Below are positions 26,821-64,000 of a DNA stretch of 64,000 nt, piece by piece. The stretch is from Plasmodiophora brassicae (lineage: Eukaryota). The stretch's first letter is position 1. The number at the start of each line of letters is the position of its first letter. The notes beneath the pieces were generated by a model. That model ran no database searches. It was not told the origin of the DNA and saw nothing but the letters and a program-made list of their open reading frames with translations. The translations under genes were made by a program, and so were the position numbers. The DNA lies in contig CP145423.1 in the NCBI GenBank assembly GCA_036867785.1, positions 434,001 through 498,000 on the forward strand, written 5' to 3'.

Positions 26821-26840
26821 GATTAACAGTCGTACGCGCT
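26821..26840 (+). promoter_or_regulatory. Primer-binding site complementary to the D-arm/anticodon arm of tRNA-Asn(GUU)
   Basis: Reverse complement AGCGC-G-TACGA-CTGTTAA-TC gives a D-stem 3' strand, anticodon stem and a loop with GTT; it directly abuts the 5' LTR. Confidence 0.7.
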
Positions 26841-26843
26841 GTG

Positions 26844-31852: not shown

Positions 31853-32011
31853 GGCGTCTACCGGTCTACTTGCAGTGAGCTGCAGACTCCATGGACTCCG
31901 TGAGCCTACTTCGGAAAATAGAGGTGCAATTGAGGTTGCCCTCTATCAGACTATCACCACCAAAAGCTGCGATACTCCTGAGGAGGTTTTTTCTGGGAAA
32001 TATCCGTGACA

Positions 32012-36322: not shown

Positions 36323-36462
36323 TAGTGAGGCAACGTTGCGCAAGTTTGCGCTTGTTTGCGCGCGCAACGTCCGTTTTTTGCCGGGGCCCGCAAAAAGTTT
36401 CTATTTATGGCTTCACGGGTGGTAGGGGGACTGTCAAAGCAGCACGTTGATTGCGAGGAAGG

Positions 36463-36770
36463 CTGCGCATGATAGAATTGCGAGACTGCGCATGACAAAA
36501 TGAGCGAGACTGCGCATGAAAGAATGAGCGAGACTGCGCATGAAAGAATGAGCGAGACTGCGCATGAAACAATGAGCGAGACTGCGCATGAAAGAATGAG
36601 CGAGACTGCGCATGAAAGAATGAGCGAGACTGCGCATGAAAGAATGAGCGAGACTGCGCATGAAAGAATGAGCGAGACTGCGCATAAAAGAATGAGCGAG
36701 ACTGCGCATGAAAGAATGAGCGAGACTGCGCATGAAAGAATGAGCGAGACTGCGCATGACAGAATGTGCG
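36463..36770. repeat. 24-bp minisatellite (GCGAGACTGCGCATGAAAGAATGA), ~12 copies
   Basis: Tandem array seen directly. Confidence 0.95.
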
Positions 36771-37526
36771 ACACTGTGCAGGGAGTGTGGCCGAGGGGCC
36801 ATAATTTGTGCACGGCACTGTGCACAGTGCCCGCGCCGCGGTCATTTTGAACAGAAGCTGTCGCGAGCGTGATATCAAGGCTCGAGCCGCGGCCGGGCGG
36901 TCTCTGAGGCGGAGCTACACCGGCGACTGTCGACCAAGTGTACTGTGCCTGCATCAAGTCAATAGAACTGCAGCCGGTACTTTCTGTCCGCGCCACTAAA
37001 GTAAACAACCACGCGCGGATGGTCCACGTTCCGCCGCCCTCATCGCGACCCGTGGAAACAGTTGCTAACTAACCTTGAACCACGTGCGAACGTCACGGGA
37101 GCTTTGCTCCCCTGACATTTCCGGTGGGAGAACCACCGCTGCAGTTCGTTCTCGAAGAACTCGCTGGAAGATTCACTTCTCTAGGTGGTCTGGGTGCTTT
37201 TCGTTCGACTTTAGCAAAGTTCGCAGGCTGTTTATCGCTGTCGTCGCATCCAACGAAGAAGATTCGGGATTTGCAGTGGCGCCGTCTGCAACTGAGTGAC
37301 TTGCAATCTTGGCATTCTTGCGAGCACTCTAGTGCCAAGTAAACTCGACGACGAGTGTACGTTGACACAACATGAAGGTGCTCGATCCAGGGGATCGCCT
37401 TGACTCCGGAGCCCAATCTGCGGCCAGGGGCGGCGGGCCGGCCGTCAGCAAGTCCCGGCACCCGAGGGCCGAGAATCGAGATCAGTGTCCGCCACCCCCA
37501 AGTCCGCTATACCATCTGCAGGTCCA

Positions 37527-37645
37527 GGACCCGGGTCGACCCGGGTCGACCCGGGTCATGGGCGGGCGCGGCGGGTCTGACCCGGGTCGACTGGGAACCC
37601 CCACGGGTGAGTCGGGTCGGGTCGGGTCGACCCGCTGCCATCTCA
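37527..37645. mobile_element. Orphan hAT-like terminus with GACCCGGGTC/GGGTC subterminal repeats
   Basis: Clustered GACCCG/CGGGTC motifs ending ACCCGCTGCCATCTC, resembling hAT ends; no partner end found. Confidence 0.4.
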
Positions 37646-37659
37646 TTTGTCGTCCCGCG

Positions 37660-40400
37660 CAATTAATCCTACTTTACTATTAATCCACCGAGCAATCCAC
37701 CGAGCGCGGCTTGGTATATTTTCCAGCAGATTAGCCACAACCCTGATCGTGCCTCGAAGTCGAGATGACGTCAGCTCACGTTGCTTCGCCATACCACAAG
37801 GTGACGAGAGCCAGGACAACACTATTGTATTATATCTCCGTAACATTCCTGAGAGGAAATACAGGCGATGCCCGAGTAGCTTGTGAATATACCACAACCG
37901 GAGGAGAGGCATGTGTTGGGTATCGACTCGATGAACATGCTCGTGGAGGATAGAGTGGAAATAGTGCAACACGTACATGCCGCAGTTGTGACCATCACGT
38001 TGCTTCTCGGCGAAATCCCCCAGGCTCGTGCATGTCTTCGTGAACGGTTTCACTGCAACGATCTTAAACTCGCTTCCCCCAGGAAATCGCGGAACGATGA
38101 ATCGGGTCCATAACTGGAGAAGCTTTGAACGATACGAGTCCCGCATCAGGGGATCGTATAAATACACCGTCCGTTTCCACCTGTCAGCAACAATGCCACA
38201 CCAGTGAACATTGGCAATCTGCCGCAGGCAAAACTTCAGTGTCGAGTATTAGCATGTGCAAGATTGACTACCGACATTAACGGGAAACAGAATGTTGCCT
38301 TCGTACAGGCGGTTCTTCTCGAAGTGTTCGGAAATGCCACCGGAATTGACAGACAGGCAGAGCGAGCTGATGGGCTCGAACACTTGCTGAAAACTCGGGT
38401 CTCTGCATTCCAGCTCTTCTTCTAAGAACTGCTCGAGGGCACTGTTCATAACCTCGTCCGATATCCATTCGTCACAAGCCAGATGCGAGAACAGGTGTCT
38501 CGTCTTCAGATGACGGCGGATATCTTCGTTCATCGGGTTCCTGAACAAATCCATCATTACGGCCTCCCGTATCTCAGCGACCTGGTTGGGGGTGAACATA
38601 TGATCCGCAATGACGAACCGTCTGTCCTCACCCAACCAACGGCGCACCTGGCCAATGAGGTCCACAACATCTTCCTTATAGCCCAAGACGTTCTGCATGG
38701 TGTGTACAAGTTTTCTAGGAGCATAAACGTCAGACACATGCACCTAATGGATGAATACATGTGCCAGTTACCATGTGACAACGCCAATGCCAGTGATTTT
38801 CACACATTGAAACGTGTAGTCGGTGGAGCGACACTTTTCAACAATCACGCGTGGCATCAAGAATGGAGCATCATCTTGCGCGTTCGCGATCGCCGTCACC
38901 CCTTTCGGTTGCAGACGGTTGCTCAGGTCGATGTACGACAACGAAAGGATAGCGTCCACGCTGTTGTCAAACGATGATTGCGGATCCTGAATCGTCGCCC
39001 ACACTCGATTCACAGATGAAGACGGGAGCGTAGTGGTTCCGCCACCTATACGAGCAGCACAAATTCAGTTGCATTATTATTCAGGAATTGGGAAGATGTT
39101 GAGCACCACTAGGTATTTCATCTCGGTCGGTGAGAGAACAATCTATATTTTCCGTGTTGGCTTGCTTTTGATTGACATGCGGAAGCTCCGATGGCCGATC
39201 ATCTTCCGAGATTCGCCTCTCAGAGAGTTCCATGTTTACAGGAGGACCTGATTGACATTGCAAGGTAAGTTTCGAATCAAAGATCCCGATATACGGTTGG
39301 ATGTCATAGCACCTGCCAGAGACTGCTTGATGGAAGTCGGAGGTACTGGCTCTGGAGCATTCGAACAGCCTGGCAACTAAATCATTCGCAAGCCTTCGAG
39401 AAGACTAACTTCGGCAATACCGTCATGTGGTGACTGCGCCAAGGCCTCGACGACGACATCACCGTTGTCCAACGACACCTCAGCAAGGAAACCATGTTCG
39501 AAGCATTCCGCGTTTGATTCGCAGTCGTCAGACACTAGGTCGTCGCCAGACGGTATGCGGTCGGGATATTCAGCTGCAGCGTACTCGACTTCTGTAGAAA
39601 AAACAATCTCAATAAGGACAACAACACGGTGCATAGGTCCCGAAGTACCTCGATGACAATCTCGAGAACCGCCGGGTTGATTGCTCGAGCAATAGAACGG
39701 ACACCGTTGGCCACTGCGCGGTGATCCGTTGAGGTGACGCCGTGTTGCATACACAAACGGCACCTGGCTGGTAGTCTTGCATTCGCAGGTTGTTGTTGAT
39801 CAAGTCGCGAAAGTCGAGCAACACGATCGGGGCGCCTACCGCGACTCGCTGTGCGTCGTAGAGGAGGTAAGACAACAGAACGCTTAATCTCAGATTCTGC
39901 AACACGGGCACCGGAAAGGTACATTCGGAATTCCGTTGCCAGCGACGTGAACGTGGACATAGCACGCCGGTACAAATGCTCGTTGACCTTAGCGTCAACA
40001 GCCAGACGAGCAAATGCTTCCGACAGGACCCGATACCGGATGTTCGGCTTAGAAGGGTAGACCACTTTGTGATAGACATCGTCATCGTGGTCTGAAACGA
40101 ATGGCTCGTCTGACTTGACGTCTGAGAAGATGCTGGTATGGCTACCAGTGCAAAGTGGTTGAGTTGCACCTGGAGCGATTGGATGTGCCTCCGGGATCCG
40201 CAGGTTTCGCCTGACGCCGTCGTACAAAGGGTGCTGCCGCAGCCACCACCGACGATGGATGTTACATAAACTGAATATGTCATCCTCGCGGCGGCTGAAC
40301 ACGGCACAGATACCGCAACACGGCATAAGTGTTGCAAGGATCCATCGCCGGAACATCATCGTCCGAGCCTCTAACGCTCAGGCAGCTCGCAAGCTCCATT
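37660..40400 (-). pseudogene. Degenerate MULE-type transposase 3' region: SWIM-adjacent segment, Zn knuckle and Ulp1 protease
   Basis: MPCCGICAV..IHRRWWL, CRLC..H, WISDEVMN, ILFPVN, HWCGIV, LYDPL, QRDGHNCGMYV; interrupted by stops. Confidence 0.6.
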
Positions 40401-50858: not shown

Positions 50859-51519
50859 CTAGTCAAACGCTACGTCTGGCGGGCCATCCCCGGCCATAGT
50901 CCACGAGGGCCACTCCCTCGCATCGTCACGTCTTCGCTAGCGAAGTACCCAACCATGGGAGAAGGAGCATATTGTGCAGCACGCATCGCTGCAGAGCAAT
51001 TTGCCCAAGCGTCACAACCTGTCGATCGCCTGCAGCGCTTGCAAGGTCGTTTGTGACAATAACGGCCCAGAGCGTCTGTCGACGTTCCAGGACGCCCGTG
51101 TCGCGGAAGCAGGACTTCCTGCACATCACGTTCCAGCGTCTGTGCAATCTCTCATCTGAGCCGTGTCAGGAAACGCAATGACGGTAAGGCACGTCGCATC
51201 CCGACCCGGCGCTACTTTAGCATGGCGTAAGGCCTGCGGGTTGCCTGCGGGTTGCCTGCGGGATGAGGTGCGCTCAGAGGCCGCTGGCAAGTGCGCAGGG
51301 CCGGCGCGAGGGACGTGCAGCGCCGTTGGCAAGTGCGCAGTGCGGCGCGGGGGGTTCAAATTTGGCGCCCCGCAGTCAGGCGTGCGGCGTGGCAATGGAC
51401 AAGGCGTGCCCCGCCACGGTGCCTCCCCTCCACGGTGGTTCTGTAACGCCTCGACCCGCCTGTCTGCACTTTGCCGCGCGCCCGGCTGTCCATTCCGCTA
51501 TTGGATTGACTTCGACAGC

Positions 51520-52645
51520 ATGTCCAGTGTTGCCAGTCTCCTCGCCGTTCTGCTCGGCCTGCTCGGGTGCGTCGTCGCGTTCCGGCCCACGGTCGTCACC
51601 GATGACCCGCACCAGAGCCTGTTCGAGGAATGGCGCAACACGTTCAAGAAGGAGTACCACACGTTTGAGGAGTACGCTCATCGCATGAAGGTGTTCCTGC
51701 AGAACCACAGGCACATCGAATCGCACAACGCGGCGGGACATTCGTACACGCTCCGCGCCAACCACTTCGCCGACCTGACACACGATGAGTTCAAGGCTCG
51801 CTACAACCTCGGCAAGCCGATTCCGAAGAAGCAATCCGCCAAGACGGTATGCGATCAAGCGCATCACCTTCACGTCCCGAGATTCTGACGACCATTGTCC
51901 GCTAGGTCGACCTGTCCGGTCAGATCAATGTTCCAGAGTCGCAGGACTGGACGGAGAAGGGCGCTGTCACGCCTGTCAAGGACCAGGGCCAGTGCGGATC
52001 CTGCTGGTCGTTCTCGACGACCGGTGCTACGGAAGGTGCCAACTACATCAAGCACAAGAAGCTGGTCTCGCTGTCGGAGCAGCAGCTGGTTGACTGCTCG
52101 GGGCCGGAAGGCGACCATGGCTGCGACGGCGGCTTGATGGACTTTGGATTCGAGTACATCATCAAGGAGGGCGGCATCTGCACGGAGGCCTCGTACCCGT
52201 ACGAGGCCCAGGACGACACGTGCCGTGCTGACAAGTGCACTGACGTCGTCAAAGTGTCCAGCTTCGTTGATGTCGGTTACGTCGTCACGAATGTGAAGCC
52301 ATTGATTTCTCATCGTCGTTCCCACAGGTCGACCAGTACAATGAGCGCGCGCTGAAGGCTGCTGTCGCCCAGCAGCCTGTCGCTGTTGCCATCGAAGCCG
52401 ACCAGCTGAGCTTCCAGTTCTACGACTCGGGTGTCATGACCGGCGAATGCGGTACGTCCCTCGACCACGGTGTCCTGGTCGTCGGATACGGCGAGGACAA
52501 CGGCGTCAAGTACTGGAAGATCAAGAACAGCTGGGGTGGCTCCTGGGGCGAGGACGGCTACATCCGCATCGAGCGTAGCGAGTCGAAGGGCTTGCCCGGC
52601 CAGTGCGGTATCGCCATGCAGCCCAGCTACCCGATCGCCGCATAG
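51520..52645 (+). CDS. Papain/cathepsin L-like cysteine protease precursor; two introns
   Basis: Signal peptide, I29 prodomain (NHFADLT), [21 protein letters not shown]. Confidence 0.95.
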
Positions 52646-52851
52646 ACGACAGCCAGTATTACATCACTTCAAGATTGTCAGACTTTCGCCATAGAATACT
52701 CATACAATACAACCTCGCTGCGTATCTCGTCGTACGCGTGTCCGCAGAGGAAGGCACCCTCGCACCTCGTATTGAGAGAGCGTGCGTCTCAGCCGTCGCG
52801 TGACGTAGTCCGATATAGGCAGCCGCAAGCGGTGGCAGTCCGGTGTAACGT

Positions 52852-53618
52852 TTATGTCTGGGCGAGTTGCTGCAGCAGGTGCGCCTTCCGGGACTGCAGC
52901 AGGAGCCGGTGGAGTTCCTCCTCGGAGGGCAGCGAGCTGGTCTGTTCGGTGTGCACGACGTTGGCGAGTGCTTCGTCGATCGTCGGGCAGTCCGCGGGCC
53001 ACGCTTCGCGTTCGGCCTGCGCTTCCAGGCGCGCTGTCAGGTCCTCGTACATGCCCAGGTATTCCGGCGTGCACTTCAGGTTCATCAGGTGGATATCGCG
53101 GCGCGTTTCCTGTTCGTGCAACGACGCCTGCTTTTCGAGGAGCTCCCGTACGCCGGGCAGGTTCCTCGCTGCCCCGAAATACATATACCCGCCGTGCCCA
53201 CGGACGACCTTGCCGTCCACATCGGTGACGGCAGGGCCCCTGGCGTAATCCGGCCCACCCAGCTGCTTACACCGGACCTCCCATTGCCGTTTCTCCTCAA
53301 GAAGCCGATTGATCTGGTCGTTCATGTCCCGAATGCGATGCTCCCCGATACTGCCGTTCTGGACCCGGGTAATCGCCTGGGATATCTCACGAAGCACCTA
53401 AAGCAAGAACAGGGCATCACGTCAGAACAGCAGCGGCAGAGCGCGTGCAACAGGCGGCGTACCTGTTTCCGCCATTTGTCGGCCGACGCCACATTGTCAC
53501 ACTGGCTAGCCAGGAACGGGCGTCGCGTCTCCCGGTCTTTGACCGGGCCGGTATCGCCGCGCTTGTACGCCAACCATCGGTTCAGCATGCTCTGCGCCTT
53601 CTCCTCATTGCGCGCCAT
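52852..53618 (-). CDS. ISY1: Pre-mRNA splicing factor ISY1; one intron
   Basis: MARNEEKAQSMLNRW; RIRDMNDQINRL..W..LGGPDY; YMYFGAARNLPGVREL. Confidence 0.95.
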
Positions 53619-53972
53619 CGTTCAGCCGCCCAGACGACCACCGGCCCGCGCCTTCGACACTTGCCACGGACCGCCAACGCAATAACCGACGGTCGCACAC
53701 ACTGCAAACCTGCATCATCAAAGTTGACATGCAGCTGACTGGCGAGTGCAGCTCGCAGTTCCGCCTACACTGTATGACTGCAGTTGCCGAGCCGCGACTG
53801 CGCAATTGCCAGCACACGCTGAATCGTCATGACAGCAAAGTTGTTTTACACAGCCAAACTTGTGGATACGTCTGTTTGGATTATATCCGATAACAATGGT
53901 ATAGGGTGAGGTTGTAGCCGGATAAATAGCCGAACGCGTTCGCACGTGGGTTGGCGGGCGTGGGGACACGGG

Positions 53973-54694
53973 TCAGAAGGCTTCCTCCTCGTAGAACTCG
54001 GCGCCGTCGACTTCGTCCTCGTTGAAGATGCCGCCTCCGCCAACGTTCAGCGACCTGCCCGCCTTCTTCGACTTCTTCTTCTTCGTCGCCGCCTGCTTCA
54101 CCTTGTTCTTCTGGTTGTAGACCACCGTCAGCGCCGACTTGAGCTCGTTGATCTCCTCGATCGACAGCGGGTCCGACGCCGCTTTCAGCAATTCCTTCAG
54201 GAAGGTCATCCGCTTCGTGTTGCCGCGGCGCTCCACCTCGATGCGCTTGGCGACGTTCGCCGCGAATTCCCTGTAATCGTCCTCGGACGCCAGCGCCAGC
54301 TCATCGAGCTTCTCGTCGAGGCGCTGCGTGGCCCTCGCTTCGTTCCTGTCGCTGGCACCGAACAGGTCCTCGGCGTCGGCGAGCCTGTTCGCACGGATCT
54401 GCTTGGCGACCTCCTCGGGACTCGGCTCGACGTACTTCGGCCTCGCCGGCGCCGGCTGCTTCACCGGCGCTGCCGCTGGCTTCTTCACGGGCGGCGGCCG
54501 TTGCACGGACGCCGACGCCGCCACCTCCTCCTCGTCGCTGGACGCGTCCCAGTCGTCCACAACAGCCCCCTGACAATCACCACCACGCTCAGACAACGCA
54601 GGCGCGGCGACGGGCGACGCGCGGCACTGACCCCATGCGGGTCGTCGTCATCCACAACGACCGGGCCGGTCGGCGTCGACCAATCATCCGCCAT
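53973..54694 (-). CDS. EIF3J: Translation initiation factor eIF3 subunit J; one intron
   Basis: Acidic N-terminus with DDW motifs, AEDLFG, helical core, basic KKKKSKK tail and acidic end. Confidence 0.75.
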
Positions 54695-54859
54695 GATGCG
54701 TTCGCGCACAATGGCCTGGGGCAACTCCGTGAGCAGCCGAGTCCGCACTGACAATAATAGGTAAAACGCGACAGCAGAAACGCCGGCACCCATCGTTCCG
54801 ACCATGGGCTAAGTTCAGGGATACATACATAATTACATATATATGTGGGAGCGGAGGCG

Positions 54860-56935
54860 TCACCAGTAGTCGCCGCAGGAGCAGCGCCCGGCGTGGAAGT
54901 GGTGGTGGCGGTTGCCGTCGCGCACGTGCACGTCGCGGTGGAACAGGGCGGAGACGCGCCGCGTGCTCTCGTGACAGTCCGTGCAGGCCCTCAGGGTCTT
55001 GGTCAGCCGGATCGGCTCGTCGGGCGGCAGGACGTGCAGGGCGTACGCGATGGCGATCTTCTCGCTGTGCGCGAACACGACCCGGCGCAAGTCGTCGTCG
55101 GACGCGCCGCGCCTGGTCGCCACGGAGACGTCGGGCGCGTACCCGTCCCGCTCGAGGTCCTCCATCAGCCGCGCGTGGCGCCGCCTCAATTCCGGGTCGG
55201 CGTGCACCTTGGCGTCGTTCGCGTAAAAGTGCACGACAGACCGATCGGGGAGCAGGAGCGACGTTCGGCCGGGCACCTTGGACAGGCCCTGCGCCCGCAT
55301 GCGGTCGCGTAGCCGGTCGACGTCGTCGAACCGCCCAGCCGCCGCGTACACGTTCGACATCAGCACGTAGGCGGCTGCCGCGTACGACGACGAGCCCGGC
55401 AGCGCCAGCACGTTCGCGAACGCGCGTTCAGCGCGCGGCAGATCGTTGTGCCTGCGGCACGCGCTGAGCACCGCCATCCAGGACACGACGTTCGCGCCCG
55501 GGGCCGCCGCCGCCATCCGCTCGGCCTCGTCCAGGTTCCCGACCCGCCCATGCAGGCCGATCATGCAGTTCAGGTGCTCGTCGGCGGCGGCGACGCTCCA
55601 GGTCGACGTGAACTCGGCGGCGATCGCGTTCGCGCGACGCAGGTCGCCGGCATGGCCGCAGGCCGACAGCAGGGAGGACAGCGTGTGCCCGGTCGGCCGC
55701 ACGCCGCACGCCTTCATGCACTCGAACGTCGTGGTCGCCTGCGGCAGCATGCCGTGATGGCTGTAGGCCGAGATCATCGAGTTGAACGCGAAGGCGTCCG
55801 GCGGGGGCGACCCGGCCAGACGGGCGGTGAACGCGTCCTCGGCCGCCGGCAGGCACCCGCAGTCGTTGTAGGCGGCCACCAACGCGCTGACGACAGCGTC
55901 GTCCAGCGCGAGCCCTTCGTCGATCGCGTATCGATGCAGCGTGTGCAACGCGGCGAGCTCGGTGCAGCGTCCGCACGCGCGAACGAACAACGTGAACACG
56001 GGCAGGTCGACGGGGATGCCCCGGTCGACCATGGCCCGGAACACGTCCAGGGCGTCGGCGATGCGGGACGCCCTGCAGAGGGCCGACAGGATATGGGTGC
56101 GGATCCGGTCGGACGGCGGCAGGCCAACGGCGTCCATGACGGGCAGCGCCTGCAGGGCGGCGTCGACCCGGTTCTGCGACAGCAGCGCCTTGAACAGGTT
56201 GCCGAAGATCGTCTGGTTGTGCGGGGCCGCGATCGACGCCGACCGGACGAGGGCGAGAATCCGCTCGGCAACGTCGGCCGCCAGCGGCGACCTCGCCTCG
56301 GCGCAGCACGCCGCGAACATGGACAGGAGCTTGTCCGACATCTCGACGCCGTTGTCGATCGCGTCCGACACGAGGAACAAGGCGGACGCCGGGTTCTTCG
56401 ACAGCCTGCAGATGTTGGCGACGCCGAAGATGACGTTATGCGAACGCGGGCCGCTCTTCGCGTAGTGCTCGACGGCTTCCCGGGCCAGCACCGGGCGGGC
56501 CGCCTGGCACGCGCCGAGGAACGTGCAGAACAGGACGTCGGTGATGCGGACCCGGCGATCCGCGGCGGCGGCCATGACGTCCGGCGCCTTCGCCGGTAGG
56601 CACCGTTTGCAGACCTGCATCATGCTCGTGAAGAAGCGCACGTCTACGGCGACGCCCGCGTGGAGCACGCACTGGAACATGATCCAGGCGCGGCGCGGCT
56701 CCCACTCGTGCTGCAGCGCGCGAACCGCCAGCGACGCCGACGGCCGCGACACGGTCGCGCGGAACAGGCCCGACCCGGGCGCCATCGGCACCGCGTTCGC
56801 CGAAGCTGCAGGCGCAACTCGCGACGTCCGCCCATCCCGCCTCAGGGGGCGCAGCACCGCCAGCGAACTGCACCGGGCCCGCTGACCCCGCCCTGTCACG
56901 CCGCAGCAGCGAACGATCGCCGGCAGTGGGACCAT
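54860..56935 (-). CDS. PPR protein with E domains and an intact DYW cytidine-deaminase domain, intronless
   Basis: PPR motifs (FNSMISAYSHHG..G.RP), E1/E2 (YVLMSNVYAAAGRF), PG box, HSEK..CTDCH, HHF..GRCSCGDYW. Confidence 0.93.
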   Translation of the reverse strand: MVPLPAIVRCCGVTGRGQRARCSSLAVLRPLRRDGRTSRVAPAASANAVPMAPGSGLFRATVSRPSASLAVRALQHEWEPRRAWIMFQCVLHAGVAVDVRFFTSMMQVCKRCLPAKAPDVMAAAADRRVRITDVLFCTFLGACQAARPVLAREAVEHYAKSGPRSHNVIFGVANICRLSKNPASALFLVSDAIDNGVEMSDKLLSMFAACCAEARSPLAADVAERILALVRSASIAAPHNQTIFGNLFKALLSQNRVDAALQALPVMDAVGLPPSDRIRTHILSALCRASRIADALDVFRAMVDRGIPVDLPVFTLFVRACGRCTELAALHTLHRYAIDEGLALDDAVVSALVAAYNDCGCLPAAEDAFTARLAGSPPPDAFAFNSMISAYSHHGMLPQATTTFECMKACGVRPTGHTLSSLLSACGHAGDLRRANAIAAEFTSTWSVAAADEHLNCMIGLHGRVGNLDEAERMAAAAPGANVVSWMAVLSACRRHNDLPRAERAFANVLALPGSSSYAAAAYVLMSNVYAAAGRFDDVDRLRDRMRAQGLSKVPGRTSLLLPDRSVVHFYANDAKVHADPELRRRHARLMEDLERDGYAPDVSVATRRGASDDDLRRVVFAHSEKIAIAYALHVLPPDEPIRLTKTLRACTDCHESTRRVSALFHRDVHVRDGNRHHHFHAGRCSCGDYW

Positions 56936-57057
56936 GACCTAATACCGCGCGCGTTCCAGGGGGGCCGCTGCCAGTGTTCGCGGACACCGCAGCTGCCGGG
57001 CTGATGAATATGCAACCGTCACATGTATGTATACAGGGTTGTCGGTGCCGCTAGGTA

Positions 57058-59463
57058 CTACCAGCGGTCGGCACACGAGCAGCGACCGCGATGGAAGTGA
57101 TGCTGGGAGTGCATGTCGCGAACGTACACGTCGCGGTTGTAGATGCGGGAGGCGAGCCTGGTGAACGCGTGGCAGTCCCGGCACATCCACATGGAGTTCG
57201 TCAGGCGGATGGGGTCGCCAGGTGGCAGGGCGGCCAGCGCGGCCGCCAGGGCGATCTTCGGGCCGTGCAGGAAGACGGACTGGCGCGCGTCGTCGTCCGT
57301 TGCAGTCTGCTTCGTGACGACGGATACGTCCGGCGAGTAACCGTTCGCGAGAAGACGCTGGATGAGGTCCCCGTGCCCTGCACCGCAATTCGGGTCATCC
57401 GCACAGACGTGGGCCGAGCGGTCGGGCAGCTGGATCCAGGTTCGAGGAGGCCGCCTCGACAGGCCTCGCTCTTTCATGGAGTTCGCCAGCCGTTCGGCTT
57501 CGGCGACGTTCCCGACGGCAGCGAACAGGGCCGACATGAACGTGAAGATGGACGCCAGTGCCCGCGGTTCGATGGTCGGATAGGTCCCCAGGATGTGGGA
57601 GAAGGCGCGCCTCGCACGCGAAACGTCTTCGTGCCAGCTGCAAACCCGCAGCATGGACACCCAGGACATGACGTTCGCGTTCGCGTTCGTGTTCGCGATC
57701 CGCTCGGCGTCATCGAGGTCGCCGAGTCGGCCGCGTATCTCGATCAGCGCGGCGACGTCCGCGTCCGACAAGGGGACGCGCCAGGTGTCGGCGAACTCGT
57801 CGACGAACGCCTGGGCTGTCGTCAGGTCGCCCGATCGGGCGCAGCAGGTCAGCAGCGCCGACAACGTGCCGGCCTTCGGTCGCAACCCGCTGGCTTTCAG
57901 CTCGTCGAACAGCTGGAACGCATCGGTAGACAGACCATGCTGGCTGCACGCCAGGATCATGGCGTTCCAGGTCAGGATGCGACCCGGACGCGGCAACGAG
58001 CGGAACAGCGTCTCGCAAGCATCCGGGCGGCTGCACCGGTCGTAGGCGGAAATCAGCGACGACGACACGTTGTCGTTCGACAGGAGGTCGTCGTCGCGTG
58101 CGAACCGATGCAACACCTCGACGGACGAAGCGTCACAGCAACGACCGGCCGCATGGGCGACCTGCGTTAGCGCAGGGGCAGCGTTCCCGAGGCCCGGCGC
58201 GGCTTGCTGAAACAGGGCCATGGCACGCGGCATGTCGTCATCGTCGGCCAGGGCCGACAGCACGAGCAGGTCGGTGGAGACGGACGGGCGCAGGCCGGCC
58301 GCGGTCATCTCGCCCAGCGTCGCGCACGCATCGTCCAGGCGCCCGTTGCGAACGTACGCCGAGATCATGGCCGTGAACGTCGACACGTCCGGGAGCGTCC
58401 GGGCGCGGCGCTGCAGGAAGATCTGCTCCGACTTGGCCAGGTGGTCACAGCGGTCGTACGCTGCGATCAGCGCGCTGACGAACAGATGGTTGTCGAGGAC
58501 CTTGGCGTGGTCCCGGGCGTACTGGTGCAGGATCCGGACGTTCGGCAGGCGTGCATGCGCGAGCAGGACGCACAGGATGGGCACCTCGATCGTGATGTTG
58601 CGATCCACCATTGTCCGGTAGATCTTCATCGCGTCTCCGAAGCGATCGCCCTTGACGAGCGCGCAGATCACGTTGTTGAGCAGGAACCTCGTCGTCGGCA
58701 CCGCCGCCTTGTCCATCCGTTTCAGGGCCTCGAGCGCGGCGCCCAGCTGCTGATGCGACAGCAGGGCGCCAATCAGCGTGTCGAACGTCGACCGCTTCTC
58801 GAACGTTTTGACCTGCTTCGACAGGACGAGATTGGCGAGTCGCGCGACGGTATCCGAGGCAGACGCCGACCTGGAGGCAGAGCAGCAGCTCGCGAACGAC
58901 GCGAACAGGCGCTCAGACATGTCCACCTGGTTGTCGACCGCATCCGCGAAGAGGCGGAGGGCAGCGTCCGGCCTCTTCCCGATCCTGCAGACGTTGACGA
59001 CGGCGAAGATGACGTCGTGCGTGCGCAGGCCGGAACGAGCGTATTGCTCCAGGGCCTCGTCGACCGGGGTAGGCTGCGCCGATTGACACGCGACGAGGAA
59101 CGAGCACAGGAGCGGTTCGGTGACGATGATGCGGCGCGAGATCGCGGCACGCAGCACGGCGGGCGCCTTGGACGGCATGCGCTTCCTGCAGAACGCCAGG
59201 GCGACCTTCGCGAACTGCGCGTCGAACCGCCCGACGCGAAGAACGTGCTCGTACGCGGCCCAGGTCTGGGCGGGGTCCCTGCCCCGCACCGCCGACGCGC
59301 CGATCGCCTCGAAGTGCTCGTACTGGCCAAAGCGCCTGACGTGCGCCGGTCGCATGACGCCGGGACCCTGTCGCCACGGCCGTTGACCTATCGGCGCGCA
59401 CACCATCGACGGTCGACGACCCTGCCGAAGGCAGCAGCAGCAACGCGACCCGACGGTTGCCAT
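57058..59463 (-). CDS. PPR-E-DYW-like paralog with degenerate active site (HGPK, ends DRW), intronless
   Basis: Homologous to its neighbour; longer PPR array; HGPK..CRDCH..HHF..CSCADRW. Confidence 0.9.
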   Translation of the reverse strand: MATVGSRCCCCLRQGRRPSMVCAPIGQRPWRQGPGVMRPAHVRRFGQYEHFEAIGASAVRGRDPAQTWAAYEHVLRVGRFDAQFAKVALAFCRKRMPSKAPAVLRAAISRRIIVTEPLLCSFLVACQSAQPTPVDEALEQYARSGLRTHDVIFAVVNVCRIGKRPDAALRLFADAVDNQVDMSERLFASFASCCSASRSASASDTVARLANLVLSKQVKTFEKRSTFDTLIGALLSHQQLGAALEALKRMDKAAVPTTRFLLNNVICALVKGDRFGDAMKIYRTMVDRNITIEVPILCVLLAHARLPNVRILHQYARDHAKVLDNHLFVSALIAAYDRCDHLAKSEQIFLQRRARTLPDVSTFTAMISAYVRNGRLDDACATLGEMTAAGLRPSVSTDLLVLSALADDDDMPRAMALFQQAAPGLGNAAPALTQVAHAAGRCCDASSVEVLHRFARDDDLLSNDNVSSSLISAYDRCSRPDACETLFRSLPRPGRILTWNAMILACSQHGLSTDAFQLFDELKASGLRPKAGTLSALLTCCARSGDLTTAQAFVDEFADTWRVPLSDADVAALIEIRGRLGDLDDAERIANTNANANVMSWVSMLRVCSWHEDVSRARRAFSHILGTYPTIEPRALASIFTFMSALFAAVGNVAEAERLANSMKERGLSRRPPRTWIQLPDRSAHVCADDPNCGAGHGDLIQRLLANGYSPDVSVVTKQTATDDDARQSVFLHGPKIALAAALAALPPGDPIRLTNSMWMCRDCHAFTRLASRIYNRDVYVRDMHSQHHFHRGRCSCADRW

Positions 59464-59648
59464 CCGGTTGGCATCAGTCGGCGGGACGCGCGCACGCACC
59501 GCCTTGCTCCTCTCGCCTACGAGCGTCCCGACGTCGCCCAACTGCGACGTCGGGGTCGGCGCCTCAATGGGGGCGCGGCACGACAACTGCGCGCCCGGGG
59601 GATCAGGACGACTTAATGCCGGGTGTGTGTTCGCCGTTTCATATCGTT

Positions 59649-61609
59649 TCACGTTAGGTTGGGGGTGTCGGGTTGCGCCAGCTGCTCCATCTGCCTGAGC
59701 AGGTCGCTGGGCGCCGCCATTTCCGTGCTGCCGTACACGATGGAGACGGGCGGCTGCGAGGGCGTGCTGGCGGAGACGTCGCGCGCCCACTCGACGAGGT
59801 TGTGCAGCTCGGCGTAGCACCCACCGCCGCACACGACCACGATGGCGTCCCGAGCTTTCGAAGCGACCTGCGGGATCGCCTTGCCCTGCGGTGCCCTGGG
59901 GTCCATCACCCGCCACGATGCGGTGACGGACGCGGCAGCGGGTTTCAACATGATCTCGCGAACGGCACGGGTCAGCGGCGTCTTGTGCTTCAAGGGGAGC
60001 AAGCTTTTCACGTTGCCTTTCAGCCAGCCCAGCCCGCTGGACAGCGCGGTGTGCTGGGAGACGAGATCCTTCAGCACGGCACCGGCACCTTTGACGTCGT
60101 CGTGCTGGCCCGTTGCCGCAATGCGACGCATCATGCGAACCTTCCTGACATAGTCGACGGCCAGCGTGGACACATCGTCGCCCATCGCGCGCGCCAGCCC
60201 TTCCACCTCTTTGTCCTTGTCGTCGCCCGCCAGGTAGTACTGCAGCAACAGGCGAAGCTTGTCGTCCGCCGTGCCTTTGCCGTCAGGGCCGATCCGCTCT
60301 TTCAGCGTGCGGACGTCTGGAAGCAGGCCACTGGCCGCCATGCGGTCCTCCATCTCGAACAGCGTGTCGAGGCCACGATCCTGAATATGGCGCATCAGTG
60401 CGGTTGCCACGTTCGTGTGGATGTCCACGAGGCGCTTCTTGCGTTGCAATTCGGGCATGCTGTTGACGATGGATTTCAGCCCTGCCGTGACGTCGCCGTC
60501 GTCCAGGGTGCTGAGATCTTCAGTGCCCGACTGCAGCGACTGGACGGTTGCCTGGTGCTCCTTGAGCAACGCCTCAACGCGTTGTGCAACTTCAGGGAAC
60601 GTCTCCGCCTTGTTCTCCGCCCAGAAGAAGTCGCTCCCATCCAGAGTGTACTCCGTTAGCTTTCCTGCACATGCAAACCGTTGAGCAACGCCATGCACAC
60701 GATGTCGAGTCAGTCACCTGCGGGGCCGGATGGCAGCCTGATACGATTCGAAGCCAGGCCCAGAAGGTCGTGCGTCATTGGTTGGTACGCCCACTGGTGC
60801 TGTAGCGGTGTCCCCAGGTCCAAGTTCCGGTCGACGAGGATCAGCACAGGTCTGCGAAACGATGCCGACGACGACTCCTGGAAGACGCGCGATCGCAGCG
60901 CTTCTCGCAAGCGCGAATCGAGCTTGGACGCGACGAGTTCAGCAGCCTCACCCGGTCGGGCATGAATGATCGGCACGGCGCCAACGGTACTGCAGACGGA
61001 ATACAGTGATTCCACGATCGCATCGACGCATGCCATGATTTCGGAATCGTCCCGAGAAGACAGTTTCGCGTACGACCTAAGAGCGGGATCAGAGCGGACG
61101 CCCGTCGTTGCGAGACTTGTACGGTACCTTGACATATTCATGGTGAACAATGAAGGTTCCAGAGTAATGAACGCTGCGTTGACGTCGGTGACGCGCGAGA
61201 TCCGAGATACCGACGCGGATTCGATCGTTCGTAGTGCCAAGTCCTCCAAGAGGACCCGAGGTAGCGTGTAGGAAAAGTTCAGGTAAAACGCGTCGTATAA
61301 CGACCGTTTCGTATCGCGATCAATCAGGTCGAGATTCGTCCGGGTCGGTGCTACAAAGTAGACGGCCGGAACACCAGGGACGCGCTCGCGATCCCCAGTA
61401 ATCAGAAGGTTCAGCGTAACGCCCAGGGCGCGCAGCTCCCCGACATTCAGCAGCGGCGATATGATATCGCGGCACGCTTCGTCATAGATCAGGACCTTCC
61501 AGGTCGCCGACGACGTTGACGACGCGCGCGGCGTCGCAGCAGACGGCGGGGGCGCATTGAGGTTCAGCATGGTCAGCAGCGCCGACTTCTGCATCGCCTG
61601 AATGTCCAT
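59649..61609 (-). CDS. SLY1: Sec1/Munc18-family protein Sly1; multi-exon
   Basis: MLNLN, WKVLIYD, LRALGVTL, PAVYFVAPT, RPVLILVDRNLDL.TPLQH.W.YQ, GGGCYAE, YGSTE. Confidence 0.93.
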
Positions 61610-62268
61610 CCCGATATACGACGCCGCCCCGACTATCGACCGTCAACCATCCAACGAGGACCGAACTGCAACTTCGCGACTCGACACTGATCCCCCTCTG
61701 AACTCCGCCCTCGACGCGTCCAGCCGACCGTGTTTTTGGAGGCCGGGGACCTGCGAATACGTTCTGGGTCCCGACACTGCCCCTGATCTACGATGCCCCT
61801 ATGGTGCCCATGCGCGGGTTTCGGGTCGATGCAGGCAGCGTTCGCGTTCCTCGGTCTGGGTGTTGCAAAGGTTCGTGAGCGCGGATTTCGCTACGTAACC
61901 CTGTACGCAGCCTGTTCGCCTTGCGTACAGCAATAATTGTATCATTGGAATCGCTGCAAAGCCTGTACCGGGCGTCGGGCTTGTTTGCTGCCAGGGGACA
62001 GCCTGAATGGCGCTCAGGAGCTCGTCCCGCAATCAGGATGAACCGGGATAAGCAGGTCTTCCCCATCCCCCGTCCTGTTGCACTTTCGGGTCTCGTTGTC
62101 ATCTTCCACTGCCCGCACATGATGCAACGTCGTAGACATGCCTCGTCGGTAATGATTGCAGCTGACCGTCCACGAGTTGCCTTGCTGACCGCGATAGCCC
62201 ATAAATAGCATCGCCGGAATTAGGACCCGGCGGCACACAGTGCCCACACAGCAGCTGCAACCGTAATC

Positions 62269-62679
62269 ATGATGCCATCCTGTTGGCACTGGTGTCTCCC
62301 ACTGCTGATTGCGGCGCGGTGTGAGACAATGGCATTCGGGCAGAGCACCACGACCTGGCTGGATGACAAGCCCACCGTGCTGTCCGTCATGTGCGTCGCC
62401 TTCGTCGTCGGCTGCGCTGCCCTGATCTTCATCGTCACCGCGGTCTACGTCGCGTTCTGTTCGAAACGCTCGACACGAATCCGGAACGCGTCCGGCATGT
62501 CCATCGTCGTCGAGCCGGAGTCGACATCATCGACGCCACTACCGACGTCGGCGTCTTTGGTGCGGTCGTCAACCACGAAGAAGAGCCAGGCGGCGCCGGT
62601 GGACCCGTCGAGACTGGGGATCACGAAGCAGCCATGCGTTACCGCCGCCGATTTCCCTCCGCTGCCCCCGATGCCGTGA
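62269..62679 (+). CDS. Small single-pass membrane protein with signal peptide
   Basis: Signal-like N-terminus, one TM helix followed by basic residues, Ser/Pro-rich tail. Confidence 0.55.
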   Translation: MMPSCWHWCLPLLIAARCETMAFGQSTTTWLDDKPTVLSVMCVAFVVGCAALIFIVTAVYVAFCSKRSTRIRNASGMSIVVEPESTSSTPLPTSASLVRSSTTKKSQAAPVDPSRLGITKQPCVTAADFPPLPPMP

Positions 62680-62703
62680 TGAATGGAACACTGAGAACAT
62701 TGT

Positions 62704-64000
62704 TTATCGCGCGTCGCTGGTGACTTCGTGGAAATCCGGATAGACAATGCGGCTGTTCTCGAAGCCCGCGACGGACGCCTTGTGCTGGTCGAATAGGTGG
62801 CGAAGCGCGTCAAAGTACACGCGATGGAGGCGGTCGATCTCGTCGGCCGGCGGGTCATCCATCTGTGTCACCGGAATCGGGTCGCCGACCACAACGGTGA
62901 CAGGCGCCGGATTCGGGATCGGCGAGTAGAACCGCCCGTAGGGCATGTGGGGTGCGCCGTACAGCGTCCGCTTCGCGAACCATTCCTGCGTGCTCTTCGC
63001 CCGGAAATTGTCCAGAAGGTGCGACTCGCCGAAACCGAACACGGGCACGAGCGACACTCCATGGATGATCGCTTGGCGAATGAACCCTTTGTGTCGGGTG
63101 ACAAGAACGACTTCATCGCTTTCCGGGCGGTTCTCCCTCATCTCGCGTTCGCCGCCGGGGACCAGCATGACGGATCGACGCTGTTTGAAGGCGCTCGACA
63201 TGGATTCGCGGCTGGCATCGCGGCACCCGCTCCACATGGCGATGTCGCGAATGACAGGGAGATAGAAGATCACGGTGGCCGCTAGGACATCGATCGTGAC
63301 CTTCGGGTAGTGCTGGGCCCAGGCTCGCCCTCGTGTCGCCCAGACGGTCGTGAACGGATAAATGCCCTAGTCCAAGCATAAGCGACGCCGCATACGGAAT
63401 GCAAACGATTCACACACGTGTGGGTGGTATCCGAACATGTAGACCTGGTCCGGGTCCAGTTTGCCCTGCGGGATCAGCCTGAGCGAGAAATAGTGTTCCA
63501 TCAGGCCCCACATCGACTGCTTCTCGCGAACGCGAGTCCAAGAGCGGGTCCCGGTCCGGTGTGGCGACTTGTGGTACGTGAACGAGTACAGGTACGCGAA
63601 CGGGATCATCATGGAGAAGTAGGTGATCCATGGGAGAACGATTGCGGGGACGACGATGGCGATAACGACGAGCAGCGGCATGGAATAGAACGTGGCCGTC
63701 AACATGAACGCGCTAGCATCGTGGTAGATTGCGCGTAAGAAGGGCTCTTTCGCATCACCGTCGTAGTACCTCAAGGAGAGCCATAGGAACAGCTGCGCGA
63801 GGACACCTCCGGTGACAGCGGACGTCACTGACCCAGTCGACAGGTGCATCTTGGATGCGATCGTCCAGAACAGGCTGACGAAGGCAGTGATTGCTAGCGC
63901 GTAGAACGTCCAGCCGATGATCTGGAGGACGATGAACCTGCTGCCGCCGACGAACGGCTGAAACGATCGGTAGCCCTTGGCATGGTGCCGACGATGCCCG
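62704..64000 (-). CDS. DGAT2/MGAT-family acyltransferase (5' part beyond the window)
   Basis: YMFGYHPH/G split by an intron, LVPGGERE, RHKGFI, LVPVFGFGE, VVGDPI. Confidence 0.9.

Follow-up and report, generated by a model that had tools for sequence, protein, structure and literature searches.

Do two plant-type PPR-DYW genes, lying side by side in a protist that is not a plant, encode working RNA editors, and on whose RNA would they act? The question is raised by a 64,000-nucleotide stretch of DNA from Plasmodiophora brassicae, a plasmodiophorid, clubroot-type parasite of plants (contig CP145423.1; referred to here as the window), in which gene 1 and gene 2 occupy the reverse strand (Table 1). 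Gene 1 probably encodes a mitochondrial C-to-U deaminase that is active, and gene 2 an inactive RNA-binding paralog; both would be nuclear members of a phytomyxean family, with import, RNA binding and editing as predicted steps.

Table 1. Features of the gene pair and its neighbours (positions of the window; anchors and motifs as located in the proteins)
Feature	Position	Strand	Basis
eIF3 subunit (eIF3j-like) gene downstream of gene 1, intron 54569-54630	53830..54631	-	Pfam eIF3_subunit 63.7 bits; RNA contigs and joint
Gene 1 transcript, union of unspliced colinear RNA contigs	54720..57016	-	0-1 other letters, no gaps; none reaches gene 2
Gene 1 CDS, PPR-E1-E2-DYW, all catalytic motifs present	54860..56935	-	691 aa + stop; ORF, Pfam, AlphaFold2
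Gene 1 residues 552-691, DYW deaminase domain	54863..55282	-	Pfam PF14432; PDB sequence and fold matches; motifs
Gene 1 DYW motifs	CSCGDYW 54863-54883; CTDCH 54971-54985; HSE 55061-55069; PG box 55259-55279	-	Alignment
Gene 1 residues 483-551, E1 and E2 motifs	55283..55489	-	Pfam E_motif 496-558, 47 bits; anchors 487, 524
Gene 1 residues 276-482, six PPR motifs, last three plant-like P2-L2-S2	55490..56110	-	Profile anchors, model helix pairs; approximate boundaries
Gene 1 residues 55-275, family-specific N-terminal module, ~six PPR-like helical hairpins	56111..56773	-	Sequence matches, model
Gene 1 residues 1-51, disordered Arg-rich N-terminus, presumed mitochondrial presequence	56783..56935	-	pLDDT <50; composition (putative targeting)
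122-nt spacer with gene 2 transcript 3' end and gene 1 transcript 5' end	56936..57057	-	Sequence, contig ends
Gene 2 CDS, PPR-E-DYW paralog, deaminase degenerate	57058..59463	-	801 aa + stop, counted from first ATG
Gene 2 residues 668-801, DYW-like domain	57061..57462	-	Pfam PF14432 79.8 bits; alignment
Gene 2 DYW-like motifs	CSCADRW 57061-57081; CRDCH (present) 57169-57183; HGP for HxE 57259-57267; PP instead of PG box 57436-57456	-	
Gene 2 residues 598-667, E1/E2-like motifs	57463..57672	-	Pfam E_motif 611-678, sub-cut-off 21.3 bits; colinear with gene 1 E1/E2
Gene 2 residues 259-597, PPR array, one unit of ~136 aa more than gene 1	57673..58689	-	Anchors, autocorrelation, BLAST
Gene 2 residues 49-258, family-specific N-terminal module as in gene 1	58690..59319	-	Matches gene 1 module, E 6e-42; colinear
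Gene 2 residues 1-48, Arg-rich N-terminus, first acidic residue not before 49	59320..59463	-	Composition (putative targeting)
Sly1/Sec1-family gene, introns 60664-60716 and 61075-61125	59649..61722	-	Pfam Sec1; joints in 3/3 RNA runs

Transcription and architecture of the gene pair

Both DYW genes are transcribed and unspliced in all three RNA runs, which derive from three studies, and no true joint occurs in their contigs. Gene 1 is represented by contigs spanning 54720-56974 (X15), 54816-57006 (X16) and 54851-57016 (X17), while 57016-60663 is covered around gene 2 with no other letters in any of the three. That the runs are genuine RNA is shown by the neighbouring genes, where each run skips six introns (51-65 nt, GT..AG type) and the contigs of the DNA run skip none. 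The earlier note's picture of an intronless pair amid intron-rich genes thus holds, since these same RNA contigs are unbroken over each of the two genes. In every RNA run the contigs of gene 1 and gene 2 break between 56974 and 57049, in the spacer, where the DNA contig is continuous, and these breaks give a weak hint that the two are transcribed separately. The RNA contig of the Sly1 gene is continuous with that of gene 2. The best named relative of this Sly1 protein is a Sec1-like protein of Spongospora subterranea (58% identity; next match 34%).

The protein encoded by gene 1 retains the complete set of domains, with Pfam scores of 97.1 bits for DYW_deaminase (PF14432), 47.0 for E_motif and 82.9 for PPR, all above their cut-offs (24 bits for DYW_deaminase and 27.3 for E_motif), and it terminates in CSCGDYW. 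Its PG box, HSE, CTDCH and CSCGDYW motifs align with all five rows compared from the plant-dominated group, four of which carry plant names. PPR profile anchors fall at residues 280, 315, 350, 385, 420 and 456, a spacing of 35/35/35/35/36/31. Pfam matches to the N-terminal module are partial (PPR_long at 174-312 and TPR_19 at 227-264), with helix pairs there in the AlphaFold2 model. The model as a whole (pLDDT 90.2, pTM 0.81) is disordered over residues 1-51 and then forms a single continuous solenoid. Its top structural match is 9kfx_A, a synthetic PPR-DYW protein with bound RNA (E 3e-26 over 639 columns), and against 7o4e_B the fold gives a target-normalised TM-score of 0.85 with an rmsd of 2.5. 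In sequence, the DYW part matches the PDB entries 9kfx (4e-29), 7o4e (7e-25) and 7w86 (4e-21). Together with the phytomyxean Sly1 neighbour, the Pfam and fold matches uphold the claim that plant-type PPR-E-DYW genes reside in a non-plant protist.

Gene 2 is an old paralog of gene 1 rather than its sister in the DYW tree; the two are colinear and share 40% identity (181/452). Its reading frame remains open further upstream, to 59916, and its DYW domain is identical to that of the database gene model P0047 (765 aa). The region of the N-terminal module is colinear with gene 1 residues 79-438 by BLAST, and the array shows an autocorrelation peak at 136 and two BLAST alignments with gene 1 that are offset by ~135 residues. 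The first reading of the locus credited both proteins with PPR arrays, E1/E2 motifs, a PG box and a DYW domain, and this stands for gene 1; in gene 2, the PG box has become PP, the protein ends in CSCADRW (DRW as opposed to DYW), and E_motif reaches only 21.3 bits against the 27.3 cut-off, alongside 79.8 bits for DYW_deaminase and 109.6 for PPR. Gene 2 also lacks the catalytic Glu, with HGP in the place of the HSE of gene 1. The codons, read directly, are CAC GGC CCG, and the RNA and DNA contigs agree with no other letters. This loss did not figure in the earlier note. The zinc ligands, an HHF motif and CSC are present, and from the conserved ligands and the Pfam score the DYW domain of gene 2 probably remains folded.

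A phytomyxean family with its own traits

The pair belongs to a phytomyxean-specific, expanded family that is labelled in databases and has never been studied. At least 23 protein clusters in public databases are named "DYW domain-containing protein [P. brassicae]", in agreement with the expansion originally suspected, and 19 of 20 family clusters bear the name of this species. A 2026 survey puts the number of DYW domains in Rhizaria at 31. The presence of DYW proteins in the lineage is therefore not new, given that databases name them and the survey counts them.

Three traits of the family do appear to be new. The first is a PPR-like N-terminal module common to all paralogs: residues 61-240 of gene 1 match 36 of the 168 proteins compared, each with an E of 8e-21 or lower, and in the plant-dominated group (126 rows) the module found no match beyond two marginal hits. 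The second is an array period of ~137 aa, as opposed to the 101-aa triplet of plants; by autocorrelation, this period is found upstream of P2 in 15 of 31 proteins, and one of 162-183 aa in another 10. The third is that 10 of 30 DYW domains from the family, that of gene 2 included, have no catalytic Glu. The full HxE and CxxCH signature is kept in the other 20, gene 1 among them, and the zinc ligands (CxxCH) in 29 of the 30, including nine of the ten Glu-less domains. The nearest neighbours of gene 2 in the DYW tree, P0046 (HSD) and P0055 (HSV), are Glu-less as well. This tree, which is weakly resolved, places the family outside the plant-dominated group, and the closest non-family sequences in it are unnamed metagenome proteins; the horizontal acquisition raised in the earlier note is a possible origin of the family.

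The N-termini are similarly uniform. In the first 40 residues, R+K outnumber D+E by 9 to 1 in gene 1, which has no hydrophobic core, and by 7 to 0 in gene 2, so the Arg-rich character noted at the outset is confirmed. Eleven of 12 family N-termini examined are Arg-rich and poor in acidic residues, like mitochondrial presequences, and a signal-peptide-like hydrophobic core occurs in none of the 12 (largest 12-residue Kyte-Doolittle mean 1.63, the threshold for such cores being a rule of thumb and not a predictor).

Relation to known DYW systems

Land-plant PLS-class DYW proteins, such as OTP86/At3g63370 (PDB 7o4e) and the synthetic 9kfx, have the same C-terminal order, P2-L2-S2-E1-E2-DYW, with spacings of 35/36/31, and share with gene 1 the PG box, HxE, CxxCH, CSC-DYW and fold. 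They differ in having a P-L-S triplet of 101 aa where the family has its longer array periods, and the conserved ~220-aa module of six hairpins with which every family paralog begins found, two marginal hits aside, no counterpart in the plant-dominated group. In addition, the organism carrying this family has no plastid, and a third of its members are without the catalytic Glu. Plants also possess split editing systems, in which a short DYW protein, namely DYW1 (PDB 7w86), acts in trans for an E or E+ PPR protein that has no working deaminase; DYW2 and MEF8 are further examples of such short proteins. Gene 2 and its nine Glu-less relatives look like such recognition proteins beside intact paralogs. 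However, the plant recognition partners are truncated, with DYW wholly or partly missing, whereas gene 2 retains a full-length DYW-like domain with zinc ligands.

Outside plants, the PPR-DYW families of the heteroloboseans Naegleria and Acrasis and of the paradinids are likewise lineage-expanded and presumed mitochondrial, and the conserved H, E and two C are kept in them, as here (PMC4202320, PMC11946409). Heterolobosean precedents for PPR-DYW proteins and editing are cited in PMC4202320, and the paradinids (Ascetosporea, Endomyxa, Rhizaria) combine such proteins with measured mitochondrial C-to-U editing (PMC11946409). In both of these groups editing has been measured, while in P. brassicae the DYW proteins are known from their genes and, for this pair, from transcripts. 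Paradinids and phytomyxeans both fall in the rhizarian subgroup Endomyxa. According to PMC11946409, paradinids have 1-3 DYW sequences per strain, compared with the 23 or more named clusters of P. brassicae, and their DYW domains share a two-residue deletion with those of fungi. Diplonema PPRD1 represents another arrangement, in which one PPR-DYW protein supports multisite C and A deamination (bioRxiv 10.64898/2026.09.04.749523); it is single-copy, serves >100 sites and has partner proteins, in contrast to the multigene family and plant-like C-terminal layout of P. brassicae.

Proposed function and alternatives

The mitochondrion is the sole genome-bearing organelle of these parasites. Both proteins would most likely enter it by means of their Arg-rich presequences, as suggested by N-terminal composition and by the absence of another such organelle. 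The PPR solenoid may then bind a specific single-stranded stretch of mitochondrial RNA, and the zinc site in the C-terminal DYW deaminase would thereby receive a cytidine that lies a few nucleotides downstream. For gene 1, in which every catalytic and zinc-binding motif is kept, the prediction is C-to-U conversion at a single mitochondrial site or a small number of them. For gene 2, in which Pro replaces the catalytic Glu while the zinc ligands remain, it is RNA binding with no deamination. Gene 2 might recognise sites in dependence on a paralog that is intact; alternatively, it might act elsewhere in RNA metabolism, for instance in the splicing or stabilisation of intron-rich mitochondrial transcripts. 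At the positions of the PPR code, which is that of plants, gene 1 has canonical residues only in part and gene 2 mostly non-canonical ones, and this weakens a simple plant-code reading. DYW proteins outnumber known editing sites in Naegleria, and given this surplus in other protists a DYW protein can be intact without having an editing site of its own.

A clearly less probable reading is that both proteins are mitochondrial splicing, cleavage or stabilisation factors, that phytomyxean mitochondria have no C-to-U editing, and that the DYW domain is kept for a non-editing role. Some plant DYW-type PPR proteins do function in splicing or RNA cleavage, the ten Glu-less family members are still open as reading frames, and gene 2 is expressed. 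A literature search turned up no report of RNA editing for the phytomyxean lineage. Moreover, PMC6823432 describes the mitochondrial genome of P. brassicae as intron rich, so that it would require many RNA-processing factors; the available text of that paper makes no mention of PPR proteins or transcript editing. Nevertheless, a full signature in 20 of 30 domains, with CxxCH in all but one, would be difficult to account for unless catalysis were under selection, and wherever the DYW families of paradinids and Acrasis were compared with transcripts, C-to-U editing was found (PMC11946409, PMC4202320).

For gene 2 alone, it is distinctly unlikely that the gene is a decaying, functionless copy and future pseudogene, transcribed because the genome is compact. 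The losses of PG box, catalytic Glu and DYW tripeptide, the sub-threshold E motif and the non-canonical code positions would fit such decay, and continuity of its RNA contig with that of Sly1 makes read-through transcription possible. Yet no stop or frameshift interrupts its 801-codon frame, and its sequence is identical across four runs from four studies; zinc ligands, HHF and CSC persist in a domain that Pfam still recognises. Recurrence of Glu-less members, the nearest tree neighbours of gene 2 included, points to a retained class rather than a single accident.

Very improbable is delivery of the proteins into the host plant cell, where they would act on mitochondrial or plastid RNA, an option that the earlier note had raised and that the N-termini, without signal-peptide-like cores and with 11 of 12 resembling mitochondrial presequences, do not support. 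P. brassicae is an intracellular plant parasite, the C-terminal layout is that of plants, and a 2026 proposal holds that the parasite manipulates host organellar RNA editing at night (PMC13247141). The proposal is based on host PPR genes, however, with parasite DYW proteins unmentioned in its available text, and paradinids parasitise copepods, not plants, their relatives of these proteins accompanying editing of the parasite's own mitochondrial RNA (PMC11946409).

Finally, the chance that contamination from the host plant, or a very recent transfer from it, accounts for the segment, already considered unlikely at first reading, is close to nil: despite the plant-type architecture and a GC content of 0.71 and 0.67 against a window mean of 0.60, RNA contigs cover each gene, a single DNA contig of 25,224 nt, which spans 51000-63000, runs through both genes and into phytomyxean neighbours, GC3 (0.93 and 0.86) resembles that of the neighbours (0.83 and 0.91), an N-terminal module and a repeat period are peculiar to the family, none of its members lies within the 126-row plant-dominated group, and identity to the nearest proteins with plant names is only 31-39%, compared with 38-53% for family members.

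Gene structure, transcription and phytomyxean setting

The 691-aa PPR-E-DYW gene (gene 1) and its 801-aa paralog (gene 2) share 40% identity (181/452) in a colinear alignment. A second alignment between the two is offset by ~135 residues, which implies that gene 2 has one additional repeat block. Upstream of its first ATG, the gene 2 reading frame remains open to 59916. Coordinates of these and other features are collected in the table below.

Features of the window and of the gene 1 protein (window positions, unless given as residues)
Feature	Position	Strand	Description
Gene 1	54860-56935	-	ORF, 691 aa, C-terminal CSCGDYW
Gene 2	57058-59463	-	ORF, 801 aa from first ATG, C-terminal CSCADRW
Neighbour intron joints	51845/51905, 52271/52328, 53395/53461, 54568/54631, 60663/60717, 61074/61126		RNA contigs, 3/3 RNA runs
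Gene 1 N-terminus	residues 1-51		Disordered (AlphaFold2 model)
Gene 1 solenoid	residues 55-548		Single unbroken solenoid of helix pairs (AlphaFold2 model)
Gene 1 DYW domain	residues 552-691		Alpha/beta domain (AlphaFold2 model)
N-terminal module	gene 1 residues 55-275		~Six PPR-like hairpins; Pfam recognition partial
ORC3_N + PHD finger protein	1658-4003	-	
Long ORF	11605-12951	+	449 aa, no Pfam at E <=1e-5
Long ORF	19151-21511	+	787 aa, no Pfam at E <=1e-5
Aspartyl protease fragment	22478-23200	-	
Ty1/copia-type LTR retrotransposon	26679-31110		
Retrotransposon direct repeats	26679-26820 / 30969-31110		>=142 nt, 100% identical
Retrotransposon ORF	27594-30986	+	Intact, 1131 aa: gag_pre-integrs, Pol_BBD, SH3_retrovirus, RVT_2
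Low-GC interval	28000-40000		~12 kb, GC 0.51-0.55 vs 0.58-0.68 elsewhere
Diacylglycerol acyltransferase gene	62707-63366	-	

The stretch is present in 20 sequencing runs from seven studies, and contigs were compared over 51000-63000 for three presumed RNA runs, each from a different study, and one DNA run. Six introns of neighbouring genes, 51-65 nt in length with GT..AG ends (CT..AC for minus-strand genes), are skipped in all three RNA runs, and none of the six is skipped in the contigs of the DNA run; the three runs are therefore transcript assemblies. In each of them gene 1 is covered by one colinear contig (54720-56974, 54816-57006 and 54851-57016), and gene 2 by one joint-free contig that runs from 57016-57049 upward and continues into the spliced Sly1 gene. 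The earlier note had described two intronless genes beside intron-bearing neighbours, and the transcripts bear this out. The flanks have ~1 intron per kb (six in ~5.8 kb of flanking transcribed sequence, 51845-61126). At this density, ~5.1 introns are expected in the 4.9-kb gene pair, and the Poisson probability of finding zero is 0.006. The pair is thus truly intron-poor, a trait that it has in common with plant PPR genes.

One further joint, 54937->55130, skips 192 nt in 3/3 RNA runs but was rejected as an intron, given 21 matching letters on each side and GT..AC ends. It is ascribed to the transcript of a paralog, since both 21-mers fall within conserved stretches of DYW codons and the contig otherwise mismatches the window. 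The gene pair holds a single variant among the four runs, 56645 T>G (plus strand), which occurs in one RNA run and the DNA run and is a synonymous change at the third position of gene 1 Val97.

The 122-nt spacer between gene 1 and gene 2 is crossed by a DNA contig and bridged by none of the contigs of the three RNA runs, which gives a weak hint that the genes are separate transcription units. On the far side of gene 2, 185 nt separate the Sly1 stop from the gene 2 ATG (59464-59648), and in 3/3 RNA runs a single contig covers this spacer together with Sly1 and gene 2. Sly1 and gene 2 transcripts may overlap or read through, and a two-gene contig is no proof of a single transcript.

Among named relatives, gene 1 comes closest to seven Plasmodiophora brassicae proteins, with 38-47% identity (among 14 matches from 7998 candidates), followed by a barley PPR protein at 31%. 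The Sly1/Sec1 neighbour shares 58% identity with a Spongospora subterranea Sec1-like protein, its next match being at 34%, and the further neighbours, ordinary housekeeping genes of a eukaryote, encode an eIF3 subunit, a cathepsin propeptide and a protein with RCC1 repeats. Among 20 family clusters looked up, 19 include proteins that bear the NCBI or UniProt name 'DYW domain-containing protein [Plasmodiophora brassicae]'. Values of GC3 are 0.93 for gene 1 and 0.86 for gene 2, compared with 0.83 for Sly1 and 0.91 for the eIF3j-like gene. From the P. brassicae relatives, the Spongospora-like Sly1, the cluster names and the matching GC3, the window DNA is phytomyxean (Rhizaria, Endomyxa), most likely from P. 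brassicae itself or a very close relative. Host-plant contamination, already considered unlikely in the earlier note, is excluded by the phytomyxean neighbours and relatives and by the GC3 match. The expansion of the family proposed there is likewise real, with at least 23 DYW-type proteins in P. brassicae.

Repeat arrays, DYW domains and catalytic motifs

Both proteins score 82.9-112.5 bits against Pfam PPR and PPR_2. Gene 1 lies above all of the Pfam cut-offs (PPR, E_motif and DYW_deaminase), with 47.0 bits for E_motif (cut-off 27.3) and 97.1 bits for DYW_deaminase (PF14432; cut-off 24). The E_motif score of gene 2, 21.3 bits, is under the cut-off, and the region aligns colinearly with gene 1. 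Its PF14432 score of 79.8 bits predicts a C-terminal DYW domain.

Modelled by AlphaFold2 on an alignment of 33 family sequences, gene 1 is predicted with confidence, at a mean pLDDT of 90.2 and a pTM of 0.81. The top Foldseek match of the model is 9kfx, an RNA-bound synthetic PPR-DYW protein (E 3e-26, 639 columns), and PPR10 and designer PPR proteins are matched at E ~1e-10. When compared with the OTP86 DYW domain (7o4e, 7o4e_B), the DYW part yields a target-normalised TM-score of 0.85 and an rmsd of 2.5. Sequence matches to the PDB entries 9kfx, 7o4e and 7w86 (DYW1) range from 4e-29 to 4e-21. The modelled gene 1 DYW domain is accordingly predicted to have a cytidine-deaminase-like fold.

A repeat profile derived from the family places gene 1 motif anchors at residues 245, 280, 315, 350, 385, 420, 456, 487 and 524. 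The final spacings of 35, 36 and 31 (P2-L2-S2), together with the sequence, identify the C-terminal layout as that of plants, P2-L2-S2-E1-E2-DYW. Upstream of this last triplet, most family arrays depart from the P-L-S triplet organisation (~101 aa period). The dominant array period, measured by BLOSUM62 autocorrelation, lies at 135-142 aa for 15 of the 31 family proteins and at 162-183 aa for another 10; others peak at 132-133 aa (2/31) or 149 aa (1/31), and a plant-type period of 101-110 aa occurs in three (101-105 aa in two, 110 aa in one). Gene 2 peaks at 136. As a control, 12 plant-dominated rows were entered, that is, rows from the DYW-tree group that holds all plant-named sequences. Two were too short, and the summed profile of the remaining ten, 2/10 of which are named as plant or JGI PPR proteins, peaks at 101. 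Plant PLS-class PPR proteins have a period of ~101 aa, whereas the family combines a plant-spaced last triplet with a mostly longer period upstream, a difference to be taken as qualitative in view of the low autocorrelation values.

At the fifth and last positions of its motifs, gene 1 has T/D, T/D, S/D, N/T, S/A and N/N, and gene 2 has mostly non-canonical pairs. By the PPR code, the gene 1 pairs are only partly canonical.

A second peculiarity of the family is its N-terminal module. Searched with gene 1 residues 61-240, 36 of 168 proteins match at E <=8e-21, including both window genes and five P. brassicae-type proteins whose C-termini lack DYW; plant-dominated rows in this search gave no match except two marginal ones. 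Five family members encoded outside the window (P0009, P0010, P0012, P0013 and P0014), three of them named P. brassicae, have the module and a PPR array with no E or DYW motifs at the end. They may form a class without DYW, or their gene models may be truncated.

For a census of catalytic motifs, 30 family DYW domains were aligned with five plant-dominated rows. Gene 1 has a PG box, HSE, CTDCH and HHHFH...CSCGDYW, and the same signatures are present in 5/5 plant-dominated rows. Gene 2 has PP instead of the PG box, HGP instead of HxE, CRDCH and QHHFH...CSCADRW, such that its C-terminus reads DRW rather than DYW. PG box and DYW motifs had been ascribed to both genes; the description holds in full for gene 1, while for gene 2 it is the DYW domain itself (79.8 bits) that stands. 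Both proteins have CxxC(H) for zinc binding as well as a C-terminal HxxxxxxCxC, and the catalytic HxE glutamate is present in gene 1 and absent from gene 2. The HGP codons of gene 2 are CAC GGC CCG, with no other letters in the contigs of 4/4 runs (RNA and DNA).

Loss of the glutamate is not rare in the family. It is kept in 20/30 DYW domains and lost in 10/30, CxxCH is kept in 29/30, and the two closest neighbours of gene 2 in the DYW tree are also Glu-less (P0046 with HSD and P0055 with HSV). On these grounds, loss of the glutamate with retention of the zinc ligands is a recurrent, kept state in the family and not private to gene 2. In DYW and cytidine deaminases, the proton-shuttling glutamate is essential for editing. 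Having neither this residue nor the PG box, gene 2 is considered a family member by descent and is not classed as an active deaminase.

Family origin and predicted function

The DYW part alone retrieved only 7 proteins in a word-indexed search, and an exhaustive HMMER search was used instead. With the 147-aa DYW part, it returned 1894 cluster representatives at E <=1e-3 and 15 at <=1e-30. A quick maximum-likelihood tree (159 rows, 147 columns, SH-aLRT support) placed 29/30 family rows plus a fragment, P0038, on one side with weak support (43). A 126-row group (SH-aLRT 89) has all of the plant-named rows and zero family rows. By module and DYW grouping, both window genes belong to the phytomyxean family. 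They are not sisters in the tree, which indicates that the tandem pair is old.

The few rows that separate the family from the plant-dominated group are metagenome proteins from JGI, ENA or Logan contigs. As nine of ten proteins looked up, all eight intermediates among them, are without an organism name, the origin of the family is unreadable from the DYW tree. From its placement, the family appears not to be nested within the sampled plant-like diversity, and its DYW domains share ~35-40% identity with those of angiosperms. This non-nesting and identity, along with native codon usage, argue against a recent transfer from the host. An ancient transfer would fit the DYW tree as well as vertical descent, and the two cannot be told apart. 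Of the horizontal origin raised in the earlier note, the recent form is thus disfavoured and the ancient form is inseparable from descent.

The N-termini of both proteins are Arg-rich, as first noted from the sequence, and their composition confirms this, with acidic residues almost absent. By composition heuristics and the model, they are also disordered and have no signal-peptide-like hydrophobic core. These properties fit predicted mitochondrial import. Phytomyxeans are not known to have a plastid, which leaves the mitochondrion as the only plausible destination of the two proteins. Once imported, the gene 1 protein would be a site-specific C-to-U editing deaminase, and the gene 2 protein would bind RNA and be unable to deaminate. 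The latter might recruit an intact paralog or act in another RNA-processing step. This joint reading, of gene 1 as a predicted imported C-to-U deaminase and gene 2 as an imported, non-deaminating RNA binder, is in our estimation fairly probable. It is rather doubtful that the Glu-less members, a third of the family with gene 2 among them, are recognition subunits that use the deaminase of intact paralogs. Such an arrangement would give protists their own, independent form of the split E+/DYW system of plants.

Alternatively, the parasite could export some PPR-DYW proteins into the host, where the editing of mitochondrial or plastid transcripts would be rewritten or blocked. Manipulation of host organellar editing by the parasite has been proposed in a 2026 paper on clubroot (PMC13247141), on the basis, in its available text, of host PPR genes only. 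Given N-termini of the kind described, we consider export highly improbable and keep to the mitochondrial reading.

A literature search, with most subscription journals outside its range, turned up neither an account of these proteins nor one of phytomyxean editing. Protist DYW families have been known since 2010. The genes already exist in public annotation, and the pair is a well-documented addition to those families. A 2026 survey (PMC13386178) reports 31 DYW domains in Rhizaria and, in the portion of its text available, names no species. According to the accessible part of PMC11946409, paradinids, likewise Rhizaria of the Endomyxa, possess PPR-DYW sequences, and C-to-U and A-to-I editing has been measured in their mitochondria. 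The P. brassicae mitogenome is 114.7 kb, intron-rich and 26% GC, and a term search of the available text of its description (PMC6823432) found PPR proteins or editing of mitochondrial transcripts nowhere mentioned. Two differentially expressed parasite PPR genes appear in a P. brassicae transcriptome, with no further analysis (PMC8298192), and a diplonemid preprint (bioRxiv 10.64898/2026.09.04.749523) is limited to Discoba and malawimonads. Three variant features of the family merit specialist attention.

Plasmodiophorids are the agents of clubroot and powdery scab; since they are unculturable, next to nothing is known of their organelle biology. A complement of at least 23 DYW-type proteins predicts C-to-U editing of their AT-rich, intron-rich mitochondrial transcripts. 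If these are edited, corrections would be due in the mitochondrial gene models now in print and in phylogenies based on them, and a second, well-sequenced rhizarian lineage would become available for the debate over whether DYW factors are plant-derived or ancestral. In addition, intact and Glu-less DYW domains form a natural series within one genome, combined with a constant N-terminal module and a non-triplet array. These features could help to dissect target recognition by PPR-DYW proteins and whether inactive members act through active ones.

Other features of the window

No further PPR or DYW ORF of >=220 aa was seen in two scans, of 34 and 8 ORFs; the listed ORFs outside these scans mostly overlap the scanned ones in other frames. 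Other genes of the window include those for an ORC3_N and PHD finger protein, an aspartyl protease fragment and a diacylglycerol acyltransferase. The Ty1/copia-type LTR retrotransposon is apparently young. The low-GC interval coincides with this element and with long ORFs without Pfam domains, and may be a repeat- or transposable-element-rich island. The 787-aa and 449-aa ORFs may be spurious in GC-rich DNA, or they may be lineage-specific genes.
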